A stretch of 64,000 nucleotides of DNA from an uncultured Poribacteria bacterium (GCA_951828515.1 OX639992.1:1826008-1890007); one strand, 5' to 3'; counted from the first letter of the stretch, positions 193-50,565 are shown. The notes: generated from the letters alone by a model not told the origin. Numbers and translations: made by a program.

Positions 193-762
193 CTACTCAA
201 ACAGGTGCGCGACTGGACAGGTAAAACCCGGTATGACATCCTCACCAGTGAGTATATCATCACGTGTGAGCATCTCAATATCCGTCTCAGAACGATATAC
301 CGTTACGGTTTGGGAAACAGGCTCAAGCACCCAGACGAGACGGGTTCCGGCGTTCAAATATGCGAGAGCCTTCTCGACAACACGAGATTGGACATCTGAG
401 GGAGAAACGACCTCAACCGCTAGATCAGGTGGTATAGGAAACCCTTTTGTTTTGTCGCCCGTCAACCGTGCAGTCGAAACAAATGCGACATCAGGTTTCA
501 TTACACGTTCCCCAACCCGAAATGTGATCTCTGCAGTGTACAGACGACCCAGTTTATTTTGATACACATACGCGTCCAAGTATCGAATAACATTGACACT
601 AATTTCACCATGCTCTCTCGACGGTGGTGGCATTGGTACTAATTCTCCCTTAACATATTCATACCCCTCCACATCATGCTCGAGAAATTCCTCCAACGTC
701 ATCTTGACACTTTCTGGCGGACGTATTCCCTGCTCAACTTCGTGGATTTCTTGTTGCTTCAT
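193..762 (-). CDS. Uma2 family endonuclease (DUF820, putative restriction endonuclease-like)
   Basis: 189 aa ORF with the C-terminal PDLAVEVVSPS motif and overall layout typical of Uma2/DUF820. A GGAGG RBS lies 8 nt upstream of the ATG at 762. Confidence 0.7.
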   Translation of the reverse strand: MKQQEIHEVEQGIRPPESVKMTLEEFLEHDVEGYEYVKGELVPMPPPSREHGEISVNVIRYLDAYVYQNKLGRLYTAEITFRVGERVMKPDVAFVSTARLTGDKTKGFPIPPDLAVEVVSPSDVQSRVVEKALAYLNAGTRLVWVLEPVSQTVTVYRSETDIEMLTRDDILTGEDVIPGFTCPVAHLFE

Positions 763-5541: not shown

Positions 5542-7464
5542 CTATGGATAGAACTGATACATTGTGGTGTTCAGAAGGATGTTTAGGAGGCTCCATGTGC
5601 TTCCCATGAGGTAATCACCGAGAACTAATCCTAAGAAGAAGGGGATGGCGCGCCGATAACTCTGGATACCACCGTGTCGAAGGATAAGCCATTTCAATGT
5701 CAAGGCAATTAGCAACGGAATCCAGAGGTCGGACATTTCTTGGTTGCTCGCCATCACATAACCGAGTGGATGCAGGGGTAGCCAAAAGAATTTGACACGA
5801 AGATATGTAAGCACCATCATGACAGAAAAGCCAATACCCATAAATATTACGCCGAGCCAGTCTGTGCTGAGCGGATACGTAATCCAGTTCGTCAACCGTC
5901 CGAAGTATTCTCTCCCGTAACCGAGTGCCCACGGTCCAAAGTAGCCGGAATCCGCACCGAATTGGTAGTAGAGATGCAGTTGGACCCAAAAGGCGACAAG
6001 CCCTCCGAAAATAGTGGCAATAACAACTGTCAAGAGCATCCGGCGTTGGTTAATATTAGCGAGTTCAGCGATTTTAAACGCCTCCAATTGATGCGGCATC
6101 TGCTGCGGACGGTAATCTCGGTTGAAAAAGCAGACGGAGAGTGCCGTTAAGTTCTGAGCCCCAAGACGATGCGTCCCCAAAATAGTGTTTAAGATGTATC
6201 GCGGTGCCTGCCAGTGGTAGGCGTGGACAAAAATGCCGGACTCCGCTCGGATACGTGTTGTCACCAGCGGCGTTATGAGGAACAGAACAGCGAAAGTAAG
6301 CGCAAGCCAGACCGACATGCCCGCCTTGTAGAGGAGAAACGCAAACAACAGAATACCGAGTCCAAAGCCCCATACCGCCACCCGATACGGCATCGGTTCA
6401 TCGTGCTGTTCGGCGGGTGGCTCTCGTCCACGAGAGGGCAGCACACTTTTCAGAACGGCTTTGAAATGCCGTTTGCCCGTCCAACCAAAGAAAAAACAGA
6501 GCCCCACGAATGCTCCGATCGTCTGTTCGTTAAGATAGGGGAAACGCGGGATACTACTCCACCCAACGGCTTTTGCTAAAGCGACTTCGTTCCGATAGAG
6601 AAAATAGAAGAGGGTTGTCGAAAAGAGGACATCCAACGGCATGAGGAACATAATGCCGATAGCAAACGGATAAAAAGCCGTGATGATGGTGCCGTAGAGA
6701 CTCAAGGGTGGCTCCTGAAACGAGAAAAAACGGCGCGTCACCGGAATATGTGGAATCACGGGATAGAGATGGCTCAATCCATTGAAAAGACTGATACCCG
6801 CAGCAATCGCAAAGCCGATCCACATCCGTTTATTTCTGAAGAACGCAGAAGTAGGATTCGTCATTGCCAGTGGGAGTTGAATAATCGGGAAGGTAAGGCG
6901 TTCACGCTGTGCCCACTGCCGACGGAGGATCGTATTGAGGCAGAGAAAGATGAACGCTATCACTGTAAAGAGCAACAACCACGCCGCTACTACTGGTGCC
7001 CAAACCTGTAGATGCATCGGACGGTATAGACTTGACTCTCCTTGGTAGTAGCCCCGAAGTGCGTCTCTATCTGAAACCGTGAGCCATTGCGGGAGGTGGT
7101 GCCAAAATAGGGTGCGCCATTCGTTTTCTTCCGTTGCGAACCAGAAACTGTGTCCAAGTACAGAAAGAATCGCTTGCAGGACATCGCATCCAGCGAGCGT
7201 TGTGGCGAAACTGAGTGTCACGTAGAGAAGTAGTAGTTCACCTTGTCCAAGGGCAAAATCACTGTTTAGGAGACGGATGACCGCGTTAATTAGCATCACT
7301 GCGGTGAGGATGAAAATCACGTTGGAGAGTGGGACGACCCATGTCGGAAAGGTATAGCGCACGACTTCCATCTGGATAAGGAAGTAGCAGTTAATCGGTG
7401 CGGTAATCGCGAAGATACACAAGACGCGCCAGGTCAAGGCACGTTGCTGGGGGAGAGAAGTCAA
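5542..7464 (-). CDS. polytopic integral membrane protein, unknown function
   Basis: 640 aa with at least 14 predicted hydrophobic helices and no recognisable catalytic motif. Confidence 0.5.
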   Translation of the reverse strand: MTSLPQQRALTWRVLCIFAITAPINCYFLIQMEVVRYTFPTWVVPLSNVIFILTAVMLINAVIRLLNSDFALGQGELLLLYVTLSFATTLAGCDVLQAILSVLGHSFWFATEENEWRTLFWHHLPQWLTVSDRDALRGYYQGESSLYRPMHLQVWAPVVAAWLLLFTVIAFIFLCLNTILRRQWAQRERLTFPIIQLPLAMTNPTSAFFRNKRMWIGFAIAAGISLFNGLSHLYPVIPHIPVTRRFFSFQEPPLSLYGTIITAFYPFAIGIMFLMPLDVLFSTTLFYFLYRNEVALAKAVGWSSIPRFPYLNEQTIGAFVGLCFFFGWTGKRHFKAVLKSVLPSRGREPPAEQHDEPMPYRVAVWGFGLGILLFAFLLYKAGMSVWLALTFAVLFLITPLVTTRIRAESGIFVHAYHWQAPRYILNTILGTHRLGAQNLTALSVCFFNRDYRPQQMPHQLEAFKIAELANINQRRMLLTVVIATIFGGLVAFWVQLHLYYQFGADSGYFGPWALGYGREYFGRLTNWITYPLSTDWLGVIFMGIGFSVMMVLTYLRVKFFWLPLHPLGYVMASNQEMSDLWIPLLIALTLKWLILRHGGIQSYRRAIPFFLGLVLGDYLMGSTWSLLNILLNTTMYQFYP

Positions 7465-7795: not shown

Positions 7796-7954
7796 GTATA
7801 TATCCTTCGCTAAGATGTTATTGCTTATCCAGTGCATGACTTCTTCAACAGCTTCAATGAAAAAAGTTGCAGCATCACCAGTTGTTTGGCGGGTATAACG
7901 CCACTTTGGGGTCCAACGGTTGACTAAATTAAATTCGGTTGTCAGTCGTCAGTA

Positions 7955-11741: not shown

Positions 11742-12650
11742 CTAAAGACTGCTTGATTGCTTATAGTCTTTCAACCTATTTTGCAACGTCCGGACGCTAA
11801 TCTCCAATACTTCCGCGGTTTTCGTTCGATTTTCGTTCTGCCACGCCAAAGTGTCGAGGATAAAGGTTTCTTCCATAGTCTTAAGGCTTGCTCCGAGAGG
11901 AACAGACACAGTTTGTTGGTTTTCAGGTGTGTAATTTTCTTTTGGTATGTTAACTCGCGGTTGCCCAAATGCCAAAATTTCTTCAGGCAGATGCCCAGGT
12001 AACACAGCCTCTCCATCTGACAAGATAACTGCGTGGATTAAAGCGTTTTCTAACTCTCGTATATTCCCGGGCCAAGGGTAGTTTTGGAGACGTGCGAGCG
12101 TCTCTGGTACTATTTTACGCACTGGCTGCGCGTAGGTATTACAATGTTTCTCCACAAAGTATTCTGTCAACATGCGAATATCCTCTCGCCGCTCGCGTAA
12201 GGATGGTAAAGAAAGAGAAACAGCATTCAATCGATAGTAAAGGTCTTTGCGGAAAGTGCCATTATCAACAGCCTCCGAGAGGTTACAGTGCGTAGCCGCA
12301 ACGATTCGGACATCCACTGGAATCGGCTTTGTTCCGCCTAAGCGTTCAATCTCACCCGTCTCAACCGCCCGTAACAACTTCGCTTGTAGGGAAAGTGGCA
12401 TATCTCCAATTTCATCAAGGAAGAGTGTCCCGTTGTGTGCGCTTTCAAATTTGCCGATGTGTTGCGTTTTCGCGTCCGTAAATGCACCTCTTTCATGTCC
12501 AAACAATTGGCTCTCAAGCAGCATATCCGGAATTGCGGCACAGTTGACAGAAACCATTTTGTTCCCCGACCGATCACTGTTTTGGTGTAAGGCACGTGCT
12601 ATCAACGCGTTAGGATATTTATAAAGAGGTCTATTTACTCGTTGGGAAAC
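11742..12650 (-). pseudogene. sigma-54-dependent transcriptional activator fragment (AAA+ sigma-54 interaction domain C-terminal part plus Fis-type HTH); N-terminus missing
   Basis: It encodes ...ALIARALH...VNCAAIP...[10 protein letters not shown]...LLRAVE (ESFGHE-like GHERGAFT loop) plus a C-terminal HTH. The Walker A GESGTGKE and the receiver/sensor domain are absent. The frame opens only at a stop near 12654, inside the 3' end of the upstream gene, and the track start is a TTG. Confidence 0.55.
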
Positions 12651-14635
12651 CTCTTAGCGAGATACTTGGGGTTTGATCTGATGCTGGGTGGATAGCGGAT
12701 CTCCCATACCTTAACGAGTGCTTTCGCGAAATTGTTTGTGGGATAGATAGGTACAAATGCGCTGCTCGGCTCCCCACGCAGAAACGGAGCAGTAGTGGTT
12801 TCCTTTACGGTTAACATGAGATGGGTTGCCCTATGGGATCTCAGAAATTCTAATGCCTCGCGTTCGGTTTCAGCGAAGTTGATATGCTGTCGGTAGAGAG
12901 CTATCCAATGGGGTATGTAGTGGTCCTGATCAACAATGGTTTTGACCCCGGCGAGGACATTGAGTTGACTTCCATGATTCCAGTGCGCGGCAACAACAGC
13001 ATGCCCGGGTAGATTGCCTTTCATCCAATCAAACGCCTGCGCGAGGCTGCCTCTCCCCGGTATAGCCCTGCGAGATTTGATAGCGGCAGGTAGTGCCCGG
13101 TTTGCGTGCCCTCCGACAGGTGCATAGAACAGAATTAGGGTTAACATCAAGACAGGGATTGCTGTTCTTAATAGAAGCTGCGGGACACGGTGTTTCACTT
13201 TATTGGCATAGAAAGTGGCTAAGAACAAGAGGAGGTCTGCGGTAAAGAAGGCGATGGATATCCCGACAAAAAAATTGTAGCGTTTCGCATCCCGTGCCAG
13301 TGCTACCCAAAAGAGAAACCATAGGGTAAATGCAACATAGATGAATTCATTCTTAACAGCACTTCGTCGTCGCCAGGCAAGCACAAGGAATCCAATGACG
13401 CAGGTAGCAACCGCAATACCGAACTCAATATTAACAATGGATGTTCCCAAAAGCGGATCAAGCACACTGCGGTAAAAGGTTGTTCCCGTGAACAGGACCA
13501 GTGGTGCGGCGAACACCAGTCCTTGCCATTTCCAAAAGCGGAAGAGTGCCATAGCAATACCGAGACTCCCCAACACAAAAACACTACCGTAATGCGTCAT
13601 CCAATAGGCAAGAAAAGTGCTTTCCAGTTCCTCAATGCTTTGCATGAGTGCGCTTTGACTGAAAGGCACAGTGGTATCGGTAAGGGTTTTGGACTGCATG
13701 AGGATATAACCGAGTGCGAGCATGATGCTGGCAAGGGTTAATCCAAACGCAAGGGTGCGTGCGTGGAGACGAAGCCAATCAGCGAAAGGTCTCTTTGTGA
13801 TGAGAAGGTGGCGGAGGTAACGGATAACTAAAAGGGCGATCGGTGGGACAAGCATCAGGGCGGCGATGTGCGTTGAAAAGCCTTGCCCGCTTCGATACGC
13901 AGGAGATACAAGATACAGGGGTGGCACGAAGATGCAGACCCAGATGAGATATACCTCTAATCTGTCTTCTGTTTCGGAGGTGAGAAACCGCCATATCTCA
14001 ACCAATAGAATGATACTGAGAAAAACGCCGAAGCCTTCCCAACTGACACCCCCAAGGAACATAGCGAAACCACTCGCGAGTGTCCATAAAAGACACTTAC
14101 GTAGCTGTTGCGATTGCAATGAAGCGAGATAGGTTGTGACGGTGAGGATACCGAGCAGGAGGCACCAGCTGTCTCTATCTCCAAAACCGGCAGTGCTGCG
14201 GTTAATCGCGCCCGGGAGTGTTGCCAGAAGCACACCAACGATGCTTGAAAAGAGAATACCGAAAGTGCGATAAAAAAAGAGACAGAGCGCCCCAAGTCCA
14301 CTGCAGAACCAGACAACGGGTGTGTAGACAGTAACGTGATAGAGTGTAACCTTCGGGAATACCCACGCGATCCCTTTGTGAACGTAGGCGAGGACGTATC
14401 CGTAGAGATTGAGGGTTTGCGTTAAATCTCTACCGAGTGGCAGCCATCGGTTCATATCCCGTTCTGGCAACTTTCCGTTTTCGGAGATGAGCTGCGCCTG
14501 CCAGTAGTAGAAGTAACCATCTGATTCGGTTAGCTGTCCAGCGGGGACATTTGTGATTCCTTGCAGCCGAATGAAAGCGGCAAGGCATAGGATACCGACA
14601 ATCAGAAAGATCGCACTTAATTTTTGTATCTTCAT
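12635..14635 (-). CDS. STT3/AglB/PglB-type oligosaccharyltransferase-like GT-C membrane protein
   Basis: 666 aa polytopic protein. Its first external loop [12 protein letters not shown]....[14 protein letters not shown] parallels eukaryotic STT3 EFDPYFNYR...DDRAWYPLGR. A later [10 protein letters not shown] sits where WWDYG would be. Confidence 0.6.
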
Positions 14636-14776: not shown

Positions 14777-15025
14777 TTAGTGGCAGGTATTTTCATATTC
14801 ACCACAAGCCTGCTCCGTGTTGTCTTTCGCACTTTCACACCGCTCTGCATTCCCACTGGCACACGCAATACTTTCATTCTCTTGTGCATCACTACACGCC
14901 TGTTGAAGGCTACTACAGTCACTAGCTTCTGCTTTCTGTAACATCCCGTGAAACGTCCCGAAACCAAATGTGAGTGCGAAGATGAGGACGAGGGCTGGAA
15001 TACTTGCAATCAATGTAGATTTCAT
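14777..15025 (-). CDS. small secreted Cys-rich protein
   Basis: 82 aa with a signal peptide (MKSTLIASIPALVLIFALTFG), 6 Cys in an acidic C-terminal half, and an AAGGAG RBS. Confidence 0.4.
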   Translation of the reverse strand: MKSTLIASIPALVLIFALTFGFGTFHGMLQKAEASDCSSLQQACSDAQENESIACASGNAERCESAKDNTEQACGEYENTCH

Positions 15026-15414: not shown

Positions 15415-15857
15415 ACCTAAGTTGCTACTTAACGTGAGATTGACATAAGCGTATCGTTGGAGCCCTGCCTCATTCTCGCAGGCAGCGGTGGATTGTCGGG
15501 TTTCGCTGTGTTTATTTTTCTGAATGTGTCATGAAAAAGGAGACGTTTGTGGGTAATTTGAAGGATTCTGGGTGTGTCATCGCTCTACCCGACCTACGGG
15601 TCTCTTTCAATTTTTATTATTAAACTCACGTTACTTACAAGATTTTCGCCGTGAAGTCCGCGTTTTTGTATCGTCTCCTGTGAACTTTCGGACGCACAAG
15701 AAACACGGACTAACAGTCTATGCTACAAAGGGGCTACTTGCGCTATTTGGGAAAACTTAATAACACAAAGGGGTGATGAGGCAGGCTTTCAAGTGCGTTT
15801 GCCTACCGAAATTGAAGGATGGAGATTGGAAAGTATGGAATAGGAATGGGAAATTTA

Positions 15858-18731
15858 TTAATTATCGCGCTGAAAACGGAATATCCCATTATGTTCTGTA
15901 CCGACGTAAAGTGTATTACGATCAACAGCAAGGGAGGTAACTGTGTATGGTATTTCTGGAGCAATTTGTTTCCAAGTGTTCGTTCGGCTATCTACTTGAT
16001 AAACCCCGCTGGCACATACACTGTAAAGGGTTGAGCCATCCGTCGCGATCTGATCCATAAGGAGTGGACACCCGTCAGTATCGGTGAGTGCATGCCAGGT
16101 TTCACCCTCGCGTGAACGCATCACTCCTGCGTCCGTTGAGATGTAGAGGGTTGAACCTACAAAGAGAATGTCTTTGTAGTAAGCAAACGGAAAGGCGAGG
16201 CTTTGGGTAATGTTCTTCCAAGTATTTCCACCATCCAGAGACCGGAAGAGGTCCCCCTCTCGTTTACCGGCATAGATGGTATCGTCCGAAGCGGCAAGAG
16301 CGAAACCTGTCTTAAGAGGTGAGATTTCTCCACCATCTTCCAAACCGGTGTGGTGCCACTCCGTCTCGCCGGGTCGCCACCTGAAAAGTTTCCGTCGGTG
16401 TTCCATAAAAACGGCTTCCCCGACGAGGGTAAAACTCCCGTTTGTTCTGTCTTCTGTCAGGAATAAGTTCTCGTCCCATAATTGTTCCGCTTCACGATCC
16501 CTGACGTTTGTTTCTCTGGCTTTTTGGAGCCTCTTCTGCAATTCAGTGTAGAGATCGTCTTCCTCGAAATCCGGCATACCTGGAACTGGTATCAGGGCAT
16601 CACTGCTAACGGGAAGGTAAAAAAGTTGCGTCCGATTACCGGGAACACTGCTGAGATGGAGAGTTGTATTGCTTGTCTGTATCTTTGGATAGACCAGAAG
16701 TTTACCTTCACTCTCCACGTTAAGGGTCTCCCAAGATTCACCACTGTTTTTTGATTTAATAATCTCTCCACCGGTGACTGCATAGAGAGCGTTTTCGACG
16801 GAACTTAGATTTTGAACATTGAAATTCGCGATCCCTGTTACAAAGGGATGCCATGTGTCCCCTCCATCCGTCGAGCGCGTTATTCCGCCGTAATAGGTTC
16901 TGTAAAAATTGTTTTCGTCCAACGCGATAGTAGGAGAAGCTCCAAATGCATGTCGGTCATTTCCAAGATACATCCACGTCTCACCGGCATCATAGGAGCA
17001 TAATATTCCACCAAAACTTATTAACAGAATCTTTTTCCCGATTGGGACGACTCTGACTGCGACTCCCATCTCAGGGGTATGCGGCGTAATATCGGTCCAT
17101 GAATCGCCGAGGTCGGTCGAATAGAAGACTTGGGCTTCAGGACCATGCCGTCGATTTATGCTCGTCCCGACGTAGAGCCTCTCCTCGGCAACTGCCAAGG
17201 ATTTAATACCGTGATCAGTCGGCACCGGCAATTTTTTCCAATTACCGGACAATCGGAAAAGCCCCCGACTCGTTCCGACAAAAAGCGTGTTATCAATGGC
17301 AAGCGCGTCCCGAATATGGAACTCGAAATCACCATCTTCCCGGACAATATCGGATCGCAAGACATGTCCTATGAATTCCCACTGCTTCCCAGCATCTTCG
17401 GAACGAAACACTTCGGTTCTGAGGACGAGGTACATCGTCATATCAGCATTCCCAGACTTGTGTTGCTGAGTGCCATCGGTAATCACCAATGCGACAGGAC
17501 GTCCCTCGGGGCGTGAGCCGAGAACACTCCAGGTTTTACCCCTATCCGTTGAGGCTAAAAGTTCATCGGATGTCAGGAGATAGAGGGTATCCCGGTATTC
17601 TGTCATGACCTTGCTGAATTCTCGCTTCGGACCGCTGGCACTGACAAGTGTCCACGCGTCTGTCTGTGGTGTGAATCGGTAGAAGCCGGGTTTCGCAACA
17701 GCATAGAGGGATTGGTCAGCGGCGAGAAAGAGTCCGGGATATGAAACCTCCCCTGTTCCGTTCGCTTGAATCCATTGCGGTTTCGCGGCGCGAGCGTCTG
17801 CCTCCTTGGGAGGCAAGGTAGCAAGCAAGTTGGGTCCCGGTTGTTGTCCGGCGCCTGTATTTTTGCCGAGCGTATCGGTGTTTCCGAATTGGTTTCTGAC
17901 ATCAGGCTTTAGTTTCAACGGAAGCACAACGGGTGCCTCAACGAATTCAATTGTCATCTCCGATGTTGCGTCTAAACTGTAAGGTTGCTGGAAACGATAC
18001 AGCGCACGTGTACCCACACCAATCATTAGAAGAATGAGAAACGTTGATGCGAAGGAAAACCCCCAGGGCACCCAAGGTTTACTTGCAGAAGGGGCAGTCG
18101 GCTGGAGACGAGCGATTTCTCGCATGACGTTCGCAGTCAGGGTCGACGGTGCTTGGAAAATACCGGAGACATCGTGGAGGAGGTGTTCTTGCGTTTTCAA
18201 TCGCTTGCGAGCCCGGTGGAGCCGACTTTTGATGGTGTTCGGGGATACACCCAAAAATTCACTAATCTTTTCACACGGCATCTCTGCGAGATAGTGCATC
18301 GTTACAACCGTGCGTTCGCTCTCTGGCAGTTTTTGGAGAAGACGCTTGACAAGGTCGCGCTGGTGCTCAACGTCTGCAGCTTCAGCACCTGTTGCCTCAT
18401 ACGCTGCATAGGAGAGTTCCGCCAGTTGGACCCCGGGCATCGCATCCAGAGATGTCGTTGGCTCCTGTTTCTTCCGCATCCACGCGATACACTGACGCGC
18501 CGCAATTACATAAAGCCACCCGAGAAAATGATACGGGGGTTTCAGGAGCGACAACTTTTTGTAAGCTTTCAGGAAAATATCTTGTGTGAGCTCCTGGGCT
18601 GTGTGAAAGTCGCCGATCTTCCGCCACACAAAGGTGTGGATCGGTTTCTGGTATCTGTTGACAAGCACGGTAAAAGCGTTGTCGTCTCCCTCTAAAACCC
18701 GCTGAATTAAGTCAAAATCATTGGTCTCCAT
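15858..18731 (-). CDS. ECF sigma factor fused to transmembrane anti-sigma-like segment and large BNR/Asp-box repeat (beta-propeller) extracytoplasmic domain
   Basis: N-terminal sigma-70 region 2 (DLIQRVLEGDDNAF...) and region 4 (ESERTVVTMHYLAEMPCEKISEFLGVSPNTIKSRLHRARKRL). One TM helix (WGFSFASTFLILLMIGVG). At least 8 Asp-box motifs S/TxDxGxTW (STDRGKTWS, SEDAGKQWE, STDLGDSWT, SYDAGETWM, STDGGDTWH, SKNSGESWE, SLDGGNTWK, SREGETWH). Confidence 0.75.
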   Translation of the reverse strand: METNDFDLIQRVLEGDDNAFTVLVNRYQKPIHTFVWRKIGDFHTAQELTQDIFLKAYKKLSLLKPPYHFLGWLYVIAARQCIAWMRKKQEPTTSLDAMPGVQLAELSYAAYEATGAEAADVEHQRDLVKRLLQKLPESERTVVTMHYLAEMPCEKISEFLGVSPNTIKSRLHRARKRLKTQEHLLHDVSGIFQAPSTLTANVMREIARLQPTAPSASKPWVPWGFSFASTFLILLMIGVGTRALYRFQQPYSLDATSEMTIEFVEAPVVLPLKLKPDVRNQFGNTDTLGKNTGAGQQPGPNLLATLPPKEADARAAKPQWIQANGTGEVSYPGLFLAADQSLYAVAKPGFYRFTPQTDAWTLVSASGPKREFSKVMTEYRDTLYLLTSDELLASTDRGKTWSVLGSRPEGRPVALVITDGTQQHKSGNADMTMYLVLRTEVFRSEDAGKQWEFIGHVLRSDIVREDGDFEFHIRDALAIDNTLFVGTSRGLFRLSGNWKKLPVPTDHGIKSLAVAEERLYVGTSINRRHGPEAQVFYSTDLGDSWTDITPHTPEMGVAVRVVPIGKKILLISFGGILCSYDAGETWMYLGNDRHAFGASPTIALDENNFYRTYYGGITRSTDGGDTWHPFVTGIANFNVQNLSSVENALYAVTGGEIIKSKNSGESWETLNVESEGKLLVYPKIQTSNTTLHLSSVPGNRTQLFYLPVSSDALIPVPGMPDFEEDDLYTELQKRLQKARETNVRDREAEQLWDENLFLTEDRTNGSFTLVGEAVFMEHRRKLFRWRPGETEWHHTGLEDGGEISPLKTGFALAASDDTIYAGKREGDLFRSLDGGNTWKNITQSLAFPFAYYKDILFVGSTLYISTDAGVMRSREGETWHALTDTDGCPLLMDQIATDGSTLYSVCASGVYQVDSRTNTWKQIAPEIPYTVTSLAVDRNTLYVGTEHNGIFRFQRDN

Positions 18732-18906
18732 CTATATCTTCTCCAAAAAATGAGCGTAAGGGCTTTATTATATAGTAACGCGTATAGAGGATCGAAAGGT
18801 TGCATAAAATGCAAGTTTCACGATAAATATTTTCGCCTTTTATAGCCTAAGTTGCTACGTACAAGATTTTATGGTAGATTTTAGAATTACTTTGACACTC
18901 TAAAGA

Positions 18907-18945: not shown

Positions 18946-19240
18946 AGAAGGGTCGTTGTTTTTTAGGATGTCTATGTATTTTTAGGATTTACCATAGTTA
19001 TGAAGGAAGAAGAGGCACAGACTAACAGTCTATGCTACGAATATCAAAATTTCTACACAGATATCGCCCCGCTGAGGCTTTAGCGTATTAGCGTTTTCTC
19101 ATTCGTAATTTACCAGAGATGTTCATTTTTTGCAAGGAATTTGGCTAAGAGCGGGTGTGTAAAATTTTGCCAGAAGATTGGGTTGGAAGGGTGGAAACTT
19201 GGAAGCGGAAAGTGTTGGTTGTCAGCGTCAGGTCAATTGT

Positions 19241-20443: not shown

Positions 20444-22294
20444 TTATTGACACGGTGTGCCGCTTGCCCGCAACAGCTGGTTTGCTCGAAATTGGTGGTT
20501 ATCAACTAAAATCGTAGGAGAGGCTCTAATGCCCAATTCCGCGGCACGTTTTATGTTCTCTCGGAAAAGTTGTTCTGCTTCCGGACTGTCAAATAGTGCT
20601 TGAATCTTCGCGACATCAATGCCGTATTTCTCAGCACAGTCCTCCCAACTCTTGTCCAGTTTTTTGCCGCGGCACAAAATATAGTCGAGATACTTATCAG
20701 GATACTCTCTCGCTATCAGTAACTGCCGAATGTTCTCTGCCACTTCGGGGTAGCCGTGTAGACTGGTGAACGGTGTTACCTCTTGGAGAGAAACAGTCTC
20801 TTTCTCTTGGGCGATAAAGCGGAGTTTAAAGTCAATTTTATCGCCAAACTCCTTCACGATCGGAATAATTTTCTCCTCCGCCTGAACACCGAATGGACAG
20901 TAACTCATTACAAAAAGTTCCAAGGTCGGTTTTCCCATTCGGGAAACCCGAGATGTCAATAATTCCTCAAGGTTCATCGGTTGGCGGCTGTGGTCCACAT
21001 CTTTGGTGTGGAGTGCTACCACTTCTGCAAACCCAGGCGAATGTTTTGTGTCGTGGCACGTAAGACAGAGCGATGTCTCAGCGGCGCGTCGGATATTCTC
21101 TTTCTTCGGATTGCCGACGTGTTGTTTGCCGGGACCGTGGCACGTTTCACATTGCACACCCTTAAAGGTCGATGTCTCATCACCAATCTGAAAACCTGTC
21201 TGGTAACCGAAGCCGGTCGTATGACAGGAAACACAATTCGGATTGAAGTATCGCTCTTTTTTCAACAGCGTTTCAAAAGCGAAAGCATGCCGTGTTGCAG
21301 ACCACTGGAGATATTCTTGCTCATGGCACCGCTGACAGGCAGTCGCTGATACATATCCGTTTTGCGGATCTTGTTCCAGTGGTTGTTCGGCAAAAAGGGG
21401 TTTGTGTTCAGACGATTGGGCAACCTCGCGGTAAAAATCGGTGAGCAACTGGCGCACGGATTCATCTTCTGGGACATCCCCGGTCAGTGCAAGTTGTGCG
21501 GCATGGTGTTGGGTTAGTTCACCGTCTGCATTCACCCAGAGTGCCAAAAAACCGAGTGTTTTCCCCTCAGATGTTGAACCTGCCCAAATCGGTGCGTTCA
21601 TCTGTTGAGTGGGTTCCACCTCTTCAGGACTGATGATGACATCGATATTAGGATGTTCCGTTGAGTTGGGTGTCCCTAAGGCAATCATCAGATTTGTATT
21701 TGGAAACTCTCGCTCAGTTGAAACGGGAACAACGGCAATTGAGAGTTCACCAGCAGTTTGAAGAATAGACGGTTGAGCGTAGGCGTGATTCTCATCAAGA
21801 AATGGGAATGATGCCGCAGCACGTCGCTCGATGAGATACGCATCTCCATAATTGAGGTCGTTTTGACTCAGCGCGATAGCGTCGTATCCCATTATGGACA
21901 TCGCTTTTAGATTTACCTGACACCTCTGTGTATCTATATCCTCGGTGCCATCGAAAATATCTCCAGCGTCAACCAAGAGCGTTGGAACGCCTTGTTGGCG
22001 GATTTGTGATATAAGGAAAGCACGCCTTGGCAAGCCACCGGCTTGTTCTTGATAGCATCCACACGGTTCCAGATGGCTTTTCGTGGCACCTGTATAGAGT
22101 ATCACGACAGAAGGTGGATCTTCACCTTCAAAGAGTGCGATAACGCTTTCAAAGGTTTCACCAATCGGTTGCCGTGCCTGTTGCTTGATTTCCTGAATCT
22201 GTTGCTGTCTGCGGGATTCCGCCCAATGTGTATATAGTGGTGGGACCCCGATAACAAGCGTTAGTAGAATTAAAGTGACGATAGCAAGCTTCAT
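20444..22294 (-). CDS. multidomain secreted/membrane-anchored protein: degenerate 5'-nucleotidase/metallophosphatase-like domain + tetraheme cytochrome c + C-terminal CPFG domain
   Basis: N-terminal hydrophobic anchor. VVILYTGATKSHLE...LLVDAGDIFDG...SQNDLN follows the 5'-nucleotidase pattern (ILHTNDHHS...LLDAGDQFQG...GNHEFD) with the His/Asp ligands replaced. Four CxxCH motifs (CQRCH, CVSCH, CETCH, CLTCH). C-terminal ~200 aa has SYCPFG. Its start is 2 nt from the upstream gene stop. Confidence 0.6.
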   Translation of the reverse strand: MKLAIVTLILLTLVIGVPPLYTHWAESRRQQQIQEIKQQARQPIGETFESVIALFEGEDPPSVVILYTGATKSHLEPCGCYQEQAGGLPRRAFLISQIRQQGVPTLLVDAGDIFDGTEDIDTQRCQVNLKAMSIMGYDAIALSQNDLNYGDAYLIERRAAASFPFLDENHAYAQPSILQTAGELSIAVVPVSTEREFPNTNLMIALGTPNSTEHPNIDVIISPEEVEPTQQMNAPIWAGSTSEGKTLGFLALWVNADGELTQHHAAQLALTGDVPEDESVRQLLTDFYREVAQSSEHKPLFAEQPLEQDPQNGYVSATACQRCHEQEYLQWSATRHAFAFETLLKKERYFNPNCVSCHTTGFGYQTGFQIGDETSTFKGVQCETCHGPGKQHVGNPKKENIRRAAETSLCLTCHDTKHSPGFAEVVALHTKDVDHSRQPMNLEELLTSRVSRMGKPTLELFVMSYCPFGVQAEEKIIPIVKEFGDKIDFKLRFIAQEKETVSLQEVTPFTSLHGYPEVAENIRQLLIAREYPDKYLDYILCRGKKLDKSWEDCAEKYGIDVAKIQALFDSPEAEQLFRENIKRAAELGIRASPTILVDNHQFRANQLLRASGTPCQ

Positions 22295-22296
22295 TG

Positions 22297-23445
22297 TTAA
22301 AAAAACCTATTTATAAGGGAGATTATCCCGAGGTGAAAGGGACCTTTACAGAGCACTGTTAACAATCCGCCGAATGTAATAACAGGTGCAAAACGAATCG
22401 CGGGTTGAATCCGAATCTTGTTATCAAAGTGTGCAAACGCGTTTTCTTTAACTAAACTCTGCAATTCACAGATTGTTTCGGCGGAAAGCCCGACTGGATC
22501 AGTTGTTATGAGCTCGGCACCTTGGCGTTCATTTCTATCCATCTGTTTCTCATAATGGGCACGACCATCCTCGCCTTCCTTTTTGACGATGTGTTCACTG
22601 AGGATCATCCCTACTTGGAGGTGTGACACTTCAATTATTCGATCAAATGCCACACTCGCTAACTGAAGCACGAGCTGCTTCGCTACCACAAAAATGAGTA
22701 GGTAGAAGCCTACAGAAAAGGCAATTCCTACCAGCAGCAGCCCGATGGAGGGGGCAGATTTCAGCATCAACCACCCGCTGAAAAATAAGATGACAACAAC
22801 AGCAGTTGGCGTTTTCAGCAAGGGACCCAAAACCTTTTGCATACCGGCAAAAACGAACAGGACTAATACGAGTCGCATCACTTGATCCAACTGCCAACCC
22901 AAACTATTGAAAAGGTAGGTAAGTCCTGCTCCAATAAGGATAAACTGAAGCAAACCATAGAGTTTCTCTAACAGGGAATCCCGATCAACGGAGGATTTGA
23001 TGAGTTGAATGAGCACTGCCCCTGTCCCCCGGACCCTGATTAACTTTACAATGAGGTAGCCTATTGCCACGATTGTGTAGGGAATGATGATATTGAGTGC
23101 CAATACTACCGGTGGAAACATTGATATCTCTTGTATAGGACCAAACCACCATGAAGGTAGTATTAAACAAAGCCCCCAGAATAACTTAGAGTCGCCGGGT
23201 GAAAAGACACCAAACGTATAGAGTCCGATGGCGATCGCACCACTAACCACAAATAGGATTGCAGCGTTCAAAGGAGTCGTAAGCCCCATAAAACAACCCG
23301 TTATTTGACCGAGGGTGCCTGCGTAAATGAGGCACATTGAACAGAGATTTGGTATTTTGTGGGTCTTTATGTCTGCATAACTTGCATAACCACAGAAGGT
23401 AAGAGCTATAGATAGAAGAACAGTCTCATAAATGAATGTGTTCAC
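22297..23445 (-). CDS. A24-family prepilin peptidase-like membrane protein with long C-terminal extension
   Basis: Both catalytic Asp motifs of A24/TadV/CpaA peptidases are present: ADIKTHKIPN (D-x5-IPN) and FSPGDSKLF (GxGD-KL). The ORF is 382 aa against ~170 aa for CpaA, with extra TM helices and a soluble C-terminal region. GTG start with a GGAAG RBS. Confidence 0.6.
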   Translation of the reverse strand: MNTFIYETVLLSIALTFCGYASYADIKTHKIPNLCSMCLIYAGTLGQITGCFMGLTTPLNAAILFVVSGAIAIGLYTFGVFSPGDSKLFWGLCLILPSWWFGPIQEISMFPPVVLALNIIIPYTIVAIGYLIVKLIRVRGTGAVLIQLIKSSVDRDSLLEKLYGLLQFILIGAGLTYLFNSLGWQLDQVMRLVLVLFVFAGMQKVLGPLLKTPTAVVVILFFSGWLMLKSAPSIGLLLVGIAFSVGFYLLIFVVAKQLVLQLASVAFDRIIEVSHLQVGMILSEHIVKKEGEDGRAHYEKQMDRNERQGAELITTDPVGLSAETICELQSLVKENAFAHFDNKIRIQPAIRFAPVITFGGLLTVLCKGPFHLGIISLINRFF

Positions 23446-25572: not shown

Positions 25573-27207
25573 TTAACCGGAACGGTTAAGCCCATTTCCA
25601 GCAAGAGGTACCTCGCGCTGGAAGTGCTTGAAAACAGATTCAACTTCGGCAGGGGTATGGTGTTTGGACAATACTTCTGCTAAAGCGTTTTCAAGGCGTT
25701 CAAATCGGTTTGTCTCCTGCCGATAGACACTCGGATAAGCCATTCCGGTTCTCGGGTCATAGTATCGGCAGAACAGGGGCTGACACAGGGATAGAGGTGT
25801 TGATGATTGGCAGCGTGTATTGGCACGCGCTGAACCTTGCTTAAACAGCCTCACAATCTCCTGAGCGGTGCGTTCCCACGTATATTTTGCTACGAATCCT
25901 TTTGCTACCTCCCTATACTTTTCGCATCTTTCCGTGTCACTTAGTAATTGGTTTATAGTTTCAGATAGATGCTGCATTGGAACCTCCAAATCGTTTCCTT
26001 TTCCAGCAGGACACTGGACAAGTACTCCCGCACCCTCAATTTCCGGCGGTAGTCCATATTTTGAAATCACAACTGCAGGGGTCCCGTATGCCATTGCTTC
26101 CAAAACCAATGAGGGGGAAGTCCCTGGTACAGCAGGGAAACAAACGACATCCAATGCTTGGAAGAATATGGGCAATACTGATCGCGTGCTTTCGTCACTT
26201 GCGTTGAAGATCACCAAGTTGCTCAGCGGATTCCGATATGCGTCAGCCAAAATTGAGTCGTAGACAAAGAAAACAAGGTGTGGGTTTGCAGTCGCGATAT
26301 CCAAGATATTCCGCATTCCAGCGTTTGGTTCAAATCCCGAAATAATACCCACCACGGGCCTCTGTGCAAACAATGGATTATCTGTAAGCACGGCAGCGTG
26401 TTGCTTGGCTAATTCTTTCCCGATAGGTTCAACGACATTGATGCCCTCTGAAATTGTGTGCACCCCTGCAGAGTCCACCCCGAATTCTGAGAGCCAGTCG
26501 GTAAGCCATGTAGCTTTGGACAGAATTAAATCTGTGGATTTCTGTGCCGTGTACGAATTCAAAGCAGATTCAAGGATTAAGGCTTGCATTCGTCTGTCAC
26601 TCTCTAAACAGCGAAGGACCGGCAGATTTTTAGAATAGTATAGGATATCGTGACTTGGAAATTGTCCAAGCAGTAAGATACCATCGTAGCCATCCATTGC
26701 ATACCAAGGGAACCAGAAATTTGAATGCTTCTCAATTATATCGCGATTTGATACGAACCCTCCAAAATCATGTCCCGGCTCCCCATTGATGTTGAAAGTT
26801 TCTAATTCCGCCAGTTTTGAGAGTGCTACCAATAGATGGAACCGGTTCTCGTTTGTTACAGGGTCCTGAACACTTTTTTCTGGAACAAACTGAAAGGGAA
26901 CAAGTAATTTGAGTCTCCTATCTGATTGAGAAGGTATGTAAGTGCTCCAAGTAGGACTTGACAACTGTCCCCGTTGACTGAGCCGTTGCAACCGTTCAAT
27001 GCCTTCAAAAATCTGCTCTATTTTGAATTTCGATCTTAACCTCTCAACAGTTGCATAAAGTGTTTCAGTGAGATTTTGATCAAGGAGTTCCCATTCCACA
27101 TCGTTAATTTCAACAATAGTATCAGATTCTAAGTCAGCGGCGTATTTTCGCCCCGACTGCTCAAATTTGCGGTGTTGATGCACTCGATATCTTGTTTCTA
27201 CCTTCAT
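25573..27207 (-). CDS. GT4-family (GT-B) glycosyltransferase with N-terminal PqqD/RRE-like domain
   Basis: C-terminal PAVPGTSPSLVLEAMAYGTPAVV is the GT4 E-x7-E region. The N-terminal ~90 aa (YAADLESDTIVEINDVEWELLD...IFEGIERLQRLSQRGQL) follows the PqqD pattern v.eLN..a..iw.l.dG..t..ei...l...y...eI..Dv..fl..L...GlL. Confidence 0.7.
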   Translation of the reverse strand: MKVETRYRVHQHRKFEQSGRKYAADLESDTIVEINDVEWELLDQNLTETLYATVERLRSKFKIEQIFEGIERLQRLSQRGQLSSPTWSTYIPSQSDRRLKLLVPFQFVPEKSVQDPVTNENRFHLLVALSKLAELETFNINGEPGHDFGGFVSNRDIIEKHSNFWFPWYAMDGYDGILLLGQFPSHDILYYSKNLPVLRCLESDRRMQALILESALNSYTAQKSTDLILSKATWLTDWLSEFGVDSAGVHTISEGINVVEPIGKELAKQHAAVLTDNPLFAQRPVVGIISGFEPNAGMRNILDIATANPHLVFFVYDSILADAYRNPLSNLVIFNASDESTRSVLPIFFQALDVVCFPAVPGTSPSLVLEAMAYGTPAVVISKYGLPPEIEGAGVLVQCPAGKGNDLEVPMQHLSETINQLLSDTERCEKYREVAKGFVAKYTWERTAQEIVRLFKQGSARANTRCQSSTPLSLCQPLFCRYYDPRTGMAYPSVYRQETNRFERLENALAEVLSKHHTPAEVESVFKHFQREVPLAGNGLNRSG

Positions 27208-27216
27208 TTTACAACC

Positions 27217-28926
27217 TCACGCTGTCGCTTGAATAAAGCCGTAGCATCTCGCAAGTATCGCCTTCGCGGTATCCTCATCTTCAATGAGTTCACTAAGTAT
27301 TGTTTCCACTTCCCTGACGGTATGTTCTTTGAGAAGGCTAATAACCAATCCGTCCTCAACTTTCTGGTTAAAAATTCCGTAGGGATTTACAAGCATTTCA
27401 TATCGCGAATTCATATTGAGTACTATGGACTTCTGTTCTAACCGTTTCTGATGGGTGTTCCAATAAGATGAAAAAAAAGTGTTGAGTCGATTTTCACAGA
27501 ACAATTTCTTTTTCCAATTGAGTTCCGAGAACAAGTCAAGGATACGTTGCGCTGTTTTCTTCCAAGTGAACGTTTGTGCGCGATTCAGTGCCTTTTGAGC
27601 GTAGGCTGCTCGTAGGGAATTGTCGTTTAGCAACAGATTTACCCCTTCCGAGAAGTCAAGTGGAGAAGCATAACTGGCAATGCTCGTGATGTCCTGTTCA
27701 AAGGGAACGGTAGGAACGATCAAACCCGCATCTCCCACGACAGAAGGAACACCATCAAAATCGGAGATGACCGGTGGTACACCGCACGCCATTGCTTCAA
27801 GCACTGTTAATCCGAATGTCTCCTCGCCAGACACGGAAGGGAAACAATATACATCAAAGGCGTTGTAAATCAGCGGTAATTTTTCACGATCATAGAATCC
27901 GATATAGATAAGGTTCTCGGGAATTTTTCGCTGTGCGTATCTACCCTCATTCTGACCCGCCTGCAAAAAGAGAAGATGTGGGTTGAGTTCTGCCAACTTC
28001 AGGTAGATAGATGCCCCCTTTTCAGGTTGGAAACGAGAGAGGTAACCCACGGTGGGCATTGTTTTAATTCGTTCATCTCCTACGCGTTTCGCGAGTTCAT
28101 TCTTTGCCTGTTGTTTATCCATTGGACGGAATAAGTTTAAATCTACACCATTTGCGACAGTATTGAAAACACCTTTATCCCAGACGAACTGGGAATAAAA
28201 TTCGCCAACAGAATCTGTAGGTGCCGTGAAGGCATCATAATCCCGTAGAGCAGTATAGTGTAACAATACAGAACGCACGTTTGTACCACCATGTCCACCC
28301 ACCGAATGCACTTGCATTAGAATCGGAGGGAGTTCGGGACATCGGAATAGTGGGATGAATCCTTCTTGGCTACGGTCAGAGTGGATTGTAAGGATACCTT
28401 CATATTGCGAAGCAATCTTTTCGGGTATACGCACCATGTCGAGCAGACTCAAATCCACTTCGTAGAAATTCTCGCCAAGTTTTCTGTTTTGTGTGCCAGC
28501 AAAGTGAAGTACTGCCTGGTCTTTCAGAGCCTGAATAGTATAAGCGAGAGCAACATGGGTCCCAGCACTGGTATTTTCTATGTCTGAAACAGCATCGGGA
28601 GCCAACCCCTGGACCACCAATAAAAAATGTGGACAATCTCCTTTTTTGAAAAATAATACGTCGGATTTCTCACCACGATTAAGGAGTAAACCCCGTCCCA
28701 CATATTCGATCAATGTCTCAAATGCTTCTTCAATATCACCATCACTGTAAGCGGTTTTTAATGTCTCTATAATTTCCTCTGTCGTCCGTGTCTCCGCGAG
28801 TTTCAGAACATCAGCAATCGCAGCAGAGATTTCGACGAGACTTGCTTTATCCAAGTCTGCGGCGTAAAGTCCACCATCTTTTTCAAAAATATGGAGTTGA
28901 TGAAGAGGTTTCGGAAAATCAAGCAT
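27217..28926 (-). CDS. GT4-family (GT-B) glycosyltransferase with N-terminal PqqD/RRE-like domain (paralog)
   Basis: PSVSGEETFGLTVLEAMACGVPPVISD is the GT4 motif. N-terminal LYAADLDKASLVEISAAIADVLKLAE.RTTEEIIETLKTAYSDGDIEEAFETLIEYVGRGLL is PqqD-like. Start uncertain (ATG at 28926 or TTG at 28950). Only 10 bp separate it from the downstream paralog. Confidence 0.7.
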   Translation of the reverse strand: MLDFPKPLHQLHIFEKDGGLYAADLDKASLVEISAAIADVLKLAETRTTEEIIETLKTAYSDGDIEEAFETLIEYVGRGLLLNRGEKSDVLFFKKGDCPHFLLVVQGLAPDAVSDIENTSAGTHVALAYTIQALKDQAVLHFAGTQNRKLGENFYEVDLSLLDMVRIPEKIASQYEGILTIHSDRSQEGFIPLFRCPELPPILMQVHSVGGHGGTNVRSVLLHYTALRDYDAFTAPTDSVGEFYSQFVWDKGVFNTVANGVDLNLFRPMDKQQAKNELAKRVGDERIKTMPTVGYLSRFQPEKGASIYLKLAELNPHLLFLQAGQNEGRYAQRKIPENLIYIGFYDREKLPLIYNAFDVYCFPSVSGEETFGLTVLEAMACGVPPVISDFDGVPSVVGDAGLIVPTVPFEQDITSIASYASPLDFSEGVNLLLNDNSLRAAYAQKALNRAQTFTWKKTAQRILDLFSELNWKKKLFCENRLNTFFSSYWNTHQKRLEQKSIVLNMNSRYEMLVNPYGIFNQKVEDGLVISLLKEHTVREVETILSELIEDEDTAKAILARCYGFIQATA

Positions 28927-29273
28927 ATTTTTTGTCTCTATATACAACAAACTGAATCAACACATTATTTTATTTCAACTCGAAGAATGCCAATTCTTGA
29001 AATAATGCTCTGTTACAACGACAGATATCTCTAACGAATTTTTTACGTATCACTCAGCATTCTCTATGTTGCAATTCCCGTGCCAATTGGAAGAACCCAC
29101 GCCGTTCGTGAATTTTAGGAAAATGGGACTACGCAAATTTTTCGCAGTCGGCAAATTTTGCATACCGAATCTCTGCAGATATTGCAGAGTTCCAAAAGGC
29201 AGTGGCACCGGCGCGCGATATATCGGGGACGAACACTATGGTAAACTTTAGAATTAACTGTACACTCTGCACC

Positions 29274-29360: not shown

Positions 29361-29645
29361 CTACTCCCAATCCGCGTGTCCGCTATCAACCATCCTCCGA
29401 TTGACATACAAGTTATCCGAGTATCGCCAGACATGCGCGACTATGCGCCCATAAATATCGGTAGCTACCGACTTGATTGTGACGCGCTTCAGCTCTATGA
29501 GAAACTTTAGATAGGCAGTGGATATTTGTCCTTCGGGGGTGCTGTTTTCAGGGGCATTTATATTTGCCAAGCGAATGCGTTGAGTTGACGTGTTAAAGGT
29601 ATCACCATCAGTTACGGATGTGACGTAGGTTGAATATTCATGCAT
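29361..29645 (-). CDS. thermonuclease (staphylococcal nuclease-like) family protein
   Basis: VTDGDTF...IRLANINAPE...DIYGRIVAHV matches the SNase core (v.DGDT..irL.giDaPE....YGR.la.v). 94 aa with a GGAGG RBS. Confidence 0.6.
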   Translation of the reverse strand: MHEYSTYVTSVTDGDTFNTSTQRIRLANINAPENSTPEGQISTAYLKFLIELKRVTIKSVATDIYGRIVAHVWRYSDNLYVNRRMVDSGHADWE

Positions 29646-29779: not shown

Positions 29780-29947
29780 ACCTCCTTTTTGAAGGAGTAA
29801 CTTATAGGCGTATGTGGACGGAAACGGAATAGCCGCTATCCCTCACAAATTAGGGATTTATACTACAGTAACGCGGATAGGGTACAGGAAGGTTGCAGAA
29901 AGTGCAATTCTTTGGAAATGTTGTGTGGTTACAATAAATTTGTAATG

Positions 29948-40430: not shown

Positions 40431-40453
40431 GACATCTGTATAAAAATGTTTAC

Positions 40454-40511
40454 AGAGGACTCCTTTTAGTAAAAGTCTCTTACTTTAGGACTACAAGGAG
40501 TCCTCTTTTTA
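40454..40511 (+). terminator. rho-independent terminator (12-bp stem AGAGGACTCCTT/AAGGAGTCCTCT, long loop, T5)
   Basis: The inverted repeat lies 24 nt after the stop of the first TonB receptor gene and is followed by TTTTT. Confidence 0.6.
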
Positions 40512-40569
40512 ATCGCATTATTGTTCAATTTCGCATATTGGACTTATCTATACTAAAAGAATCCTCATA

Positions 40570-50481: not shown

Positions 50482-50565
50482 AAGCTCCGCACGCCGCAAT
50501 TCAGATTGACGACAACGCAGACTCCTGCTAAAATTAAGAGAAACCCACAGACACGGAGGGGACGC

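Follow-up and report, generated by a model that had tools for sequence, protein, structure and literature searches.

The 64,000-nucleotide stretch of DNA from an uncultured Poribacteria bacterium analysed here (GCA_951828515.1, OX639992.1:1826008-1890007; hereafter the window) carries on its minus strand, at 15858..18731, a complete coding sequence for a 957-residue protein. In this protein an extracytoplasmic function (ECF) sigma factor, a linker, a transmembrane (TM) helix, a juxtamembrane segment and a double beta-propeller follow one another in one polypeptide; all parts of the protein described below lie on the minus strand. The open reading frame (ORF) starts with ATG and is uninterrupted, its sole stop codon being the terminal one, and homologues run its full length. 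A sequence-only reading had described the product as a single chain of ECF sigma regions 2 and 4, one TM helix and a large propeller ectodomain, a description borne out by Pfam and NCBIfam matches, hydrophobicity and structural models.

The ECF sigma domain occupies residues 1-181 (18189..18731), as indicated by Pfam, NCBIfam, modelling and Foldseek. It is recognised by the sigma-70 r2 and r4 hidden Markov models (HMMs): Sigma70_r2 matches residues 23-89 (18465-18665; E 6.8e-11), Sigma70_r4_2 residues 126-178 (18198-18356; E 1.7e-16) and Sigma70_ECF residues 7-181, and these three and Sigma70_r4 all exceed their curated Pfam cut-offs. Neither Sigma70_r3 nor Sigma70_r1 is among the Pfam matches of the protein at E<=1. 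Regions 2 and 4 are thus present, with the r2-to-r4 span within 181 residues, as in ECF (group 4) sigma factors. The generic sigma70-ECF model of NCBIfam (TIGR02937) scores 91 bits against a cut-off of 42.9, and the named NCBIfam equivalogs (SigW, RpoE, SigM and others) all fall far under their own cut-offs. By sequence, the nearest solved sigma factor is Bacillus subtilis SigW (E 1.4e-22). Two AlphaFold models were built, one of residues 1-330 from an alignment of 75 diverse sequences (the chassis model, see below) and one of the full-length protein from a 27-sequence alignment, in which the N-terminus is poorly modelled. In the chassis model the sigma core has a predicted local distance difference test score (pLDDT) of 80-96, and the best Foldseek matches in the PDB are SigW, AlgU and RpoE, covering the sigma part only.

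Between sigma domain and membrane lies a cytoplasmic linker, residues 182-219 (18075..18188), delimited by conservation and the chassis model, with two short predicted helices (182-189 and 197-209) and a conserved K218-P219 at its end. The single TM helix that follows, at about residues 220-243 (18003..18074; conserved P222, W223 and G238), is the only strongly hydrophobic segment of the protein (Kyte-Doolittle 19-mer maximum 1.86 at residue 221), and both models place a helix here (223-238 in the full-length model, 227-247 in the chassis model). Beyond the membrane, the juxtamembrane segment, residues 244-290 (17862..18002), bears the conserved motif F247-Q-x-P250-Y251 ... A255-x-S257-E258 (FQxPY..AxSE) and is predicted to be disordered (pLDDT <50); disorder is predicted over 239-320 in the full-length model and from 251 onwards in the chassis model. 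It gives way to a variable Gly/Pro/Gln-rich spacer, residues 291-330 (17742..17861; conservation 0.2-0.35), which is disordered in the models. Because there is one hydrophobic segment and the sigma domain must be cytoplasmic, the protein would lie N-in/C-out, with its propeller facing the periplasm.

There is virtually no chance that the ORF represents two genes joined by a frameshift or misassembly. In a search of 5.8 billion protein clusters, the best 120 are 58-100% identical to the query and align with 91-100% of its length (in nearly every case 100%), and full-length relatives were found at 78 loci besides. The same full-length architecture recurs across independent assemblies, among them single-cell genomes and closed chromosomes. 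Full-length homologues in more than 100 clusters and at 78 loci therefore rule out an artefact as the source of the fusion.

The suggestion that such chains are rare does not hold for the sponge-symbiont candidate phylum Poribacteria, in which the protein is hugely expanded and often arranged in tandem: a scan of one genome per species gave at least 600 pattern matches, of which at least 562 were confirmed as relatives by tblastn. The few named clusters among the best 120 are annotated as 'sigma-70 family RNA polymerase sigma factor' of a Candidatus Poribacteria bacterium. The best 78 loci (yielding 125 family ORFs; loci are denoted here by L and a number) hold full-length relatives at 35-61% identity and come from Poribacteria, a few being labelled only 'uncultured bacterium'. 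Counting the fetched loci only, copies number at least seven in the metagenome-assembled genome JAJEGI01 and at least six in PCPOR1. Head-to-tail tandem arrays are frequent, with four family genes in L002 (5-11984), three in L012 (378-8961) and three in L006 (45-8892), and others in L038/L064. When 93 full-length paralogues were aligned, conservation was highest in the sigma core (top-residue frequency 0.73-0.83 in r2 and r4), next highest in the juxtamembrane stretch (0.72; L244, F247, Q248, P250, Y251, A255, S257, E258 and T260) and lowest in the propeller (0.3-0.6). In this alignment, as in the chassis alignment of 75 sequences, C81 is the sole Cys conserved at 90% or more; the window protein's C153 is not conserved.

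A profile search of 1.84 billion representatives returned 2,449 proteins at E<=1e-30; the best 150 of these begin with some 40 full-length BNR-type clusters, and most of those that follow align with the profile at positions 1 to ~305 only (350-450 bits), in proteins 400-1377 residues long. Every named cluster is from Poribacteria. The ectodomains of 117 representatives fall into 47 of BNR type, 44 in a WD40-dominated cluster, eight LRR and four CarboxypepD_reg/Ig-like, and single representatives bear trypsin plus TPR, transglutaminase-like, AhpC/Redoxin (thioredoxin-like), M16-like, Reg_prop, LamG, Big_5 or unrecognised domains. Conservation persists through the TM helix and decays past about residue 290, and the juxtamembrane stretch stays at 0.65-0.72 both among paralogues and in variants whose sensors are unrelated. 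A hydrophobic segment at positions 213-240 is kept in all 119 chassis variants, with a second segment in 1/118. Residues 1 to ~290 (sigma, linker, TM helix and juxtamembrane motif) are a conserved chassis joined to many unrelated ectodomains. In two variants (L078:6001-8997 and protein P0161) a trypsin-like serine peptidase (about residues 334-467) stands directly after the juxtamembrane segment and is followed by many TPR repeats; its placement fits a proteolytic switch at that position, and these variants could be self-contained protease switches.

In the window protein itself the ectodomain, residues 331-957 (15861..17741), is a tandem double beta-propeller according to the model, Foldseek and Pfam. 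The C-terminal ~715 residues give BNR, Sortilin-Vps10, DUF6242 and PSII_BNR matches above the Pfam cut-offs (BNR 31.3 bits against 27). Repeats of the S-x-D-x-G-x-T-W type, spaced by about 40 residues in propeller blades as in BNR/Asp-box proteins, occur in seven copies, six of them strict S-x-D-x-G-x-x-W boxes (394, 444, 538, 579, 620 and 831) and one loose (660), and in a further five blades what is left is the conserved Trp or a degenerate box (W360, W498, W792, W879 and W920). The count of at least eight Asp-boxes made from the sequence alone is reached if the degenerate copies are included, and falls short otherwise. The beta region of the full-length model, 333-957, is confident (pLDDT ~75-89), and its strand pattern can be read as about 14 four-stranded blades. 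A charged helical insert, residues 721-763 (16443..16571; modelled helices 727-740, 745-753 and 757-763), interrupts the blades in the second half of the propeller region and is the most variable part of the protein in the paralogue alignment (conservation 0.23-0.28).

Enzymes of glycoside hydrolase family 74 (GH74) are tandem double seven-bladed propellers, and Foldseek against the PDB places GH74 xyloglucanases first for the ectodomain (E 3e-23, 13-16% identity; template-modelling score normalised to target 0.54-0.60 over ~770-840 columns). They are the best overall fold for residues ~330-957 (e.g. Clostridium thermocellum Xgh74A, 2cn3), with two tandem seven-bladed propellers, Asp-boxes included. 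The arrangement of the GH74 fold, in which two such propellers form a substrate cleft, agrees with these matches and with the ~14 blades of the model. Sequence matches to the family are marginal, and the GH74 enzymes, unlike the window protein, are secreted and not fused to a sigma factor. The hybrid two-component system (HTCS) sensors BT4673 and BT4663 of Bacteroides match as well (E ~1e-18 to 1e-20), with poor superposition (template-modelling score ~0.3). On the strength of fold analogy, the propeller would be a ligand sensor, probably for a glycan or glycoprotein.

That it is instead a working membrane-anchored GH74-type hydrolase, with a vestigial or secondary sigma domain, seems to us very improbable. 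GH74 is the best PDB fold match, the NCBIfam model 'F510_1955 family glycosylhydrolase' matches in part (110 bits, under its cut-off of 175), and GH74 is counted as abundant in Poribacteria (PMC6081418, PMC6306507). Against this, conservation peaks in the sigma core and is lowest in the propeller, the same chassis bears many non-enzymatic repeat domains, identity to GH74 is 13-16%, and sequence searches find Asp-box stretches alone (phmmer against GH74 PDB chains, E ~1e-3 over 39 residues).

A family-specific ECF-type promoter, ATGCAACCTTTCGATCCTCTATACGCGTTA, stands directly upstream of the gene at 18776-18805 (minus strand). It has a -35-like TGCAAC and a -10-like CGT (also written ATGCAACCTTT-N14-CGTTA), and is an exact match to the family consensus with a position weight matrix (PWM) score of 41.7. 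The initial reading had suggested a check for AAC-N16-CGT-like promoters near the gene; such a site is present before the gene itself, in the spacing AAC-N18-CGT. SigW-type promoters read TGAAAC-N16-CGTA, to which the TGCAAC-N18-CGT of the window is similar. The bipartite promoter of ECF genes, AAC at -35 and CGT at -10, thus lies upstream of a gene whose own product would read it. It forms part of a block of ~110 nucleotides (18732..18842, minus strand) comprising an A/T-rich upstream part, the promoter, a TATAAT-like hexamer and a Shine-Dalgarno sequence, GGAGAAG (18738-18744). This block is nearly invariant in an alignment of the window with four orthologous loci (L079-L082; proteins 78-88% identical), and farther than ~110 nucleotides before the ATG the upstream DNA of the five is not alignable. 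Rfam gave no match over the whole window, so the conserved block is not a known RNA family, and a scan around the gene for sigma-70 consensus promoters and terminators found no excess over shuffled sequences. One orthologue carries an insertion of ~100 nucleotides between promoter and Shine-Dalgarno sequence (L079:5800-5990), whose palindrome resembling a repetitive extragenic palindrome (REP) and duplicated CCTTATGCTCATTTTTT end suggest a small mobile element that duplicated its target site.

The same motif, ATGCAAC(C)TTT-N14-CGT(C/T)A, or AAC-N18-CGT, precedes 81 of 112 family genes at 53-131 nucleotides (median 69) from the start codon, in genes down to 47% sigma identity, including a WD40 variant and a trypsin/TPR variant. 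For the window gene, most paralogues and a few neighbouring genes, the distance to the start codon comes to about 45-100 nucleotides. Its unforced positions are conserved as well (A-1 at 0.91, T+7..+9 at 0.84/0.99/0.84, and C-G-T-[CT]-A at +24..+28). All the tandem copies whose upstream DNA was checked (three in L002, two in L012 and two in L006) have a promoter each, in a spacer of 130-350 nucleotides. A strict pattern finds 72 matches on both strands of 1.12 Mb of locus sequence, against about one in shuffled sequence; 53 of these stand before family genes, and of the other 19, 18 are on the family-gene strand. These other targets include genes for PD40/Tricorn-like propellers and for STAS, TPR, LamG/sialidase-N-like, AhpC/TSA and DUF3108-like proteins. 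This distribution is what an autoregulated ECF with a small, local set of targets classically shows, and we infer from it that the promoters are read by these sigma factors. Small STAS-domain genes of the anti-sigma-antagonist type, preceded by the family promoter, adjoin family genes in four loci (L045:8574-8915, L049:4632-4973, L052:7537-7878 and L030:5220-5660), which hints at a link to a partner-switching module.

The sequence-only reading had also called the protein a sigma/anti-sigma fusion, and here the anti-sigma part found no support. Only ~38 cytoplasmic residues separate sigma region 4 from the TM helix. In Pfam, neither the full-length sequence (E<=1) nor residues 182-330 (E<=10) match an anti-sigma family. 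When a profile built from 20 diverse segments spanning linker, TM helix and juxtamembrane region was run against all PDB chains, no anti-sigma chain came up at E<=10; the sole match is a generic TM helix. Like the known sigma/anti-sigma hybrids, the protein is a single sigma-TM-extracytoplasmic polypeptide, but neither the Pfam nor the PDB profile searches reveal the class I anti-sigma domain, zinc-binding anti-sigma (ZAS) zinc finger or FecR N-terminal domain that hybrids have before the TM helix. A separate anti-sigma or partner gene beside the family was considered and rejected: when the flanking ORFs of the 78 loci were clustered, no conserved neighbour, anti-sigma candidates included, recurred beside family genes, whose commonest neighbour is another family copy.

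We consider it rather probable that the protein is a tethered, Poribacteria-specific ECF sigma factor, released by regulated proteolysis after ligand binding to the propeller and positively autoregulated. Since no anti-sigma domain is present, the membrane anchor itself would keep the tethered sigma from productive transcription. A change in ligand occupancy would make the juxtamembrane segment, conserved and disordered as it is, accessible to a site-1 protease, whereupon an RseP-type site-2 protease would cut the Pro/Gly-containing TM helix (conserved P222 and G238) and free the sigma core with a short tail. The freed sigma would then bind core RNA polymerase and transcribe from ATGCAAC(C)TTT-N14-CGT(C/T)A promoters, its targets being its own gene, in positive feedback, and adjacent genes for periplasmic proteins. 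Given that sigma2, sigma4 and the promoter are all conserved from paralogue to paralogue, the various sensors probably act on overlapping sets of promoters.

Release by regulated proteolysis is, by analogy, the most plausible mechanism. SigW, RpoE and AlgU, the closest sigma factors, become free when a single-pass anti-sigma factor undergoes regulated intramembrane proteolysis. Such proteolysis is a general mechanism for membrane anti-sigma factors, and for the fused IutY of Pseudomonas putida, an ECF243 sigma/anti-sigma hybrid, release by Prc and then RseP has been shown experimentally (PMC8999054). These precedents also bear on a different possibility, that the sigma is active while tethered, like ToxR or CadC, the ligand altering its oligomerisation or conformation so that RNA polymerase is recruited without proteolysis. 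With no anti-sigma domain, nothing obvious blocks core binding, and the linker of ~38 residues is conserved, both of which would suit a tethered activator. However, a sigma factor must accompany RNA polymerase through promoter search and open-complex formation, and the SigW, RpoE, AlgU and IutY sigmas are all freed by proteolysis. A lone TM helix without a dimerisation or HAMP-type module conveys conformation poorly, and a motif that is conserved yet disordered resembles a recognition site more than a structural relay. We therefore regard activity in the tethered state as quite unlikely.

Several points weigh against proteolytic release of an autoregulated, ligand-sensing sigma. Its N-in/C-out topology would follow from the presence of a lone hydrophobic segment and from the sigma having to be in the cytoplasm. 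Within the 64-kb window, to which the search was confined, no RseP, DegS, Prc or PrsW-type protease was found, apart from a weak Peptidase_A24-like ORF at 22297-23445 (minus strand), just under the cut-off and not syntenic in L079-L082. On the sensor side, sequence matches of the ectodomain in the PDB are no better than E ~1e-4, so that it belongs to no solved family at sequence level, and the likeness to GH74 is one of fold, at 13-16% identity. The remaining points concern the linker and the promoter, and each of these leads to an alternative of its own.

The linker is moderately conserved across all variants and has two short predicted helices (182-189, and 197-209 at pLDDT ~78), and may hold a minimal inhibitory element of the CnrY or NepR kind. 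CnrY and NepR inhibit their sigma factors with two helices. By that precedent residues 182-219 would be a built-in minimal anti-sigma (class II/III) folding back on sigma2 and sigma4, and the protein a true hybrid, in line with the initial reading, proteolytically activated all the same. Against this, the linker resembles no anti-sigma in Pfam or in the PDB, which contains CnrH-CnrY (4cxf) and RpoE-NepR (5uxx), and we judge a built-in inhibitor unlikely.

As for the promoter, its reader could be another sigma, a master ECF factor separate from these proteins, with the family genes as members of its regulon rather than autoregulated. Autoregulation is deduced from the position and type of the motif, and the AAC-to-CGT spacing, at 18 nucleotides, is 1-2 longer than in SigW-type promoters. 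Co-variation between promoter and sigma was dropped as proof of autoregulation: mutual information is equally high for linker residues, which do not bind DNA, so that the signal reflects phylogeny and is uninformative, supporting neither side. Some loci, moreover, carry unrelated stand-alone ECF genes of 193 aa (L046 and L060). On the other hand, the motif tracks family genes closely (53 of the 72 strict matches), the WD40 and trypsin/TPR variants among them, its -35 and -10 elements resemble those of SigW, the nearest characterised sigma, and ECF genes are typically autoregulated. A master sigma thus appears improbable to us, and autoregulation by the tethered sigma the better account.

Proteins that unite ECF sigma, TM helix and sensor in one polypeptide are an established category, comprising IutY/ECF243, ECF52 (SCO4117), ECF53, ECF48 and ECF263 (PMC8999054). 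IutY is the best mechanistic model for the window protein, as its one chain likewise starts with an ECF sigma, crosses the membrane by a single TM helix and ends in an extracytoplasmic sensor part. In contrast to the window protein, in which none is detectable, IutY has a FecR-type anti-sigma domain, and it acts in TonB-dependent cell-surface signalling for a siderophore, whereas the window protein has no conserved receptor partner; the window sigma is SigW-like rather than FecI-like, and its ectodomain is a double propeller. In ECF52 (SCO4117 of Streptomyces coelicolor), ECF53 and ECF48, an ECF sigma is likewise linked by one or two TM helices with an extracytoplasmic domain, which is carbohydrate-binding in SCO4117, and proteolytic activation has been proposed (PMC8999054). 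These are, however, actinobacterial proteins with a zinc-finger (ZAS-like) anti-sigma module, a Pro-rich region and extensions of up to ~400 aa, whereas the window protein comes from a different phylum and has no zinc finger and an extension of ~775 aa.

The closest evolutionary pattern is that of the planctomycetal group ECF57, present in 5.3 copies per planctomycetal genome and bearing WD40-type extensions, and of the duplicated ECFs in which a highly conserved sigma2/sigma4 core bears C-terminal extensions of unrelated origin and many Pfam types, WD40 included (Pinto & da Fonseca 2020; PMC8999054). By published description, these and the Poribacteria family share a multi-copy occurrence within one phylum and the coupling of conserved sigma2/sigma4 to unrelated extensions. 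Copy number is high in Poribacteria too, and 44 of the 117 chassis representatives are WD40-dominated, although the window protein is BNR and not WD40. The Poribacteria family differs in that its conserved unit runs ~110 residues past sigma4 (linker, TM helix and juxtamembrane motif), in its frequent tandem arrays, and in having one conserved Cys (C81) where ECF57 has two, proposed to link sigma2 and sigma4 (PMC8999054).

Among sigma factors with a separate inhibitor, SigW-RsiW (B. subtilis), RpoE-RseA (Escherichia coli) and AlgU-MucA (P. aeruginosa) offer the nearest sigma cores, by sequence (SigW) and by fold, and their single-pass membrane partner is removed by site-1 and site-2 proteases. 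Their anti-sigma is a separate protein with a class I domain, whereas in the window protein TM helix and sensor lie within the sigma polypeptide and an anti-sigma domain is missing. The Bacteroides HTCS proteins BT4663, which senses heparin and heparan sulphate according to its PDB titles, and BT4673 likewise wire a large periplasmic double propeller through the membrane to a transcriptional output in one polypeptide, and chassis variant P0234 bears the Reg_prop repeat of these sensors. Their output, however, is a histidine kinase, receiver and AraC-type module and not a sigma, and global superposition is poor, as noted above. The lack of a detectable anti-sigma, the conserved TM-juxtamembrane unit, the GH74-like double propeller and the tandem arrays set the Poribacteria family apart from known fused ECFs. 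The literature searched names no BNR/GH74-like double propeller among ECF extensions, and in it we found no paper linking Poribacteria with ECF sigma factors or with a sigma/TM/sensor architecture.

Elsewhere in the window, two weaker promoter-like sites stand out against 0-1 shuffle matches. The first (ACTTTCTGCAACCTTCCTGTACCCTATCCGCGTTACTG; 29866..29903, minus strand; two mismatches to the consensus, PWM 21.2) lies 220 nucleotides upstream of a 94-aa SNase-like ORF (29361-29645) and two glycosyltransferase genes (27217-28950 and 25573-27207). The same promoter sub-class (ACTTTCTGCAACCTTCC...CTATCCGCGTTACT) occurs directly before PD40/Tricorn-like propeller genes at L080:9036 and L082:2255, and membership of the window site in the regulon is uncertain. 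The second, GTCAAC...GGCGTTA (7893-7930, minus strand; PWM 18.8), is upstream of a DUF6785/DUF6784 gene (5542-7464) and is conserved nearly base for base at L080:14401; in L080 the site lies within a small predicted gene, so that coding constraint may explain the conservation.

Around the sigma gene, a 24-nucleotide palindrome (GTAGCATAGACTGTTAGTCTGTGC) occurs twice (19015-19038 and 15703-15726, both minus strand) and brackets it. These palindromes were considered as marks of a duplication cassette and discarded, as they belong to a dispersed REP-like repeat with 50 sites in the 1.12 Mb, found near 17 of 103 family genes and bracketing one of the 103. Downstream of the gene are an 82-aa Cys-rich secreted DUF6520-like protein (14777-15025, minus strand), matched by an 82-aa ORF at the same relative position in L081, and a 666-aa polytopic membrane protein with no Pfam match (12635-14635, minus strand). 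On its other side, a 616-aa protein with multihaem cytochrome c554-like motifs and a C-terminal DsbA/thioredoxin domain (20444-22294, minus strand) is followed directly by the 382-aa membrane protein at 22297-23445 (minus strand), with its sub-threshold Peptidase_A24 match (prepilin-peptidase-type intramembrane protease); neither gene is syntenic in L079-L082. Two adjacent paralogous TonB-dependent receptors of 930 and 932 aa (37638-43368, plus strand), restriction-type genes (GmrSD, two Uma2 and an HSDR_N fragment; 43521-45422 and 193-762, minus strand; 50506-51393 and 51712-52302, plus strand) and four PhyH dioxygenase genes spread across the window are ordinary chromosomal context.

Fused membrane-spanning ECF sigma factors are known, and few have been studied. 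With no apparent anti-sigma module in this family, it may be asked whether membrane tethering suffices to silence a sigma factor. The chassis, recombined with more than ten ectodomain types, comes with a clear and testable promoter, and although Poribacteria are uncultured, a short sigma core and a defined promoter could be tested in E. coli. The repeat proteins of the phylum (WD40, LRR, TPR and BNR) may be sensor inputs to transcription. Given the GH74-like fold and the very large sigma-fused family, some Poribacteria GH74 calls may likewise be sensor domains rather than xyloglucanases, a warning for the use of GH74 counts to infer polysaccharide degradation. More broadly, and tentatively, it is possible that Poribacteria possess a large battery of single-pass, tethered ECF sigma factors, built on a chassis of ~290 aa with interchangeable host- or matrix-sensing ectodomains, a shared promoter class and tether-and-release control without an anti-sigma step. 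Such ectodomains (GH74-like double propellers, WD40, LRR, TPR and lectin domains) are of the kinds counted in sponge-symbiont genomics as 'eukaryote-like repeat proteins' and abundant 'GH74 hydrolases'.

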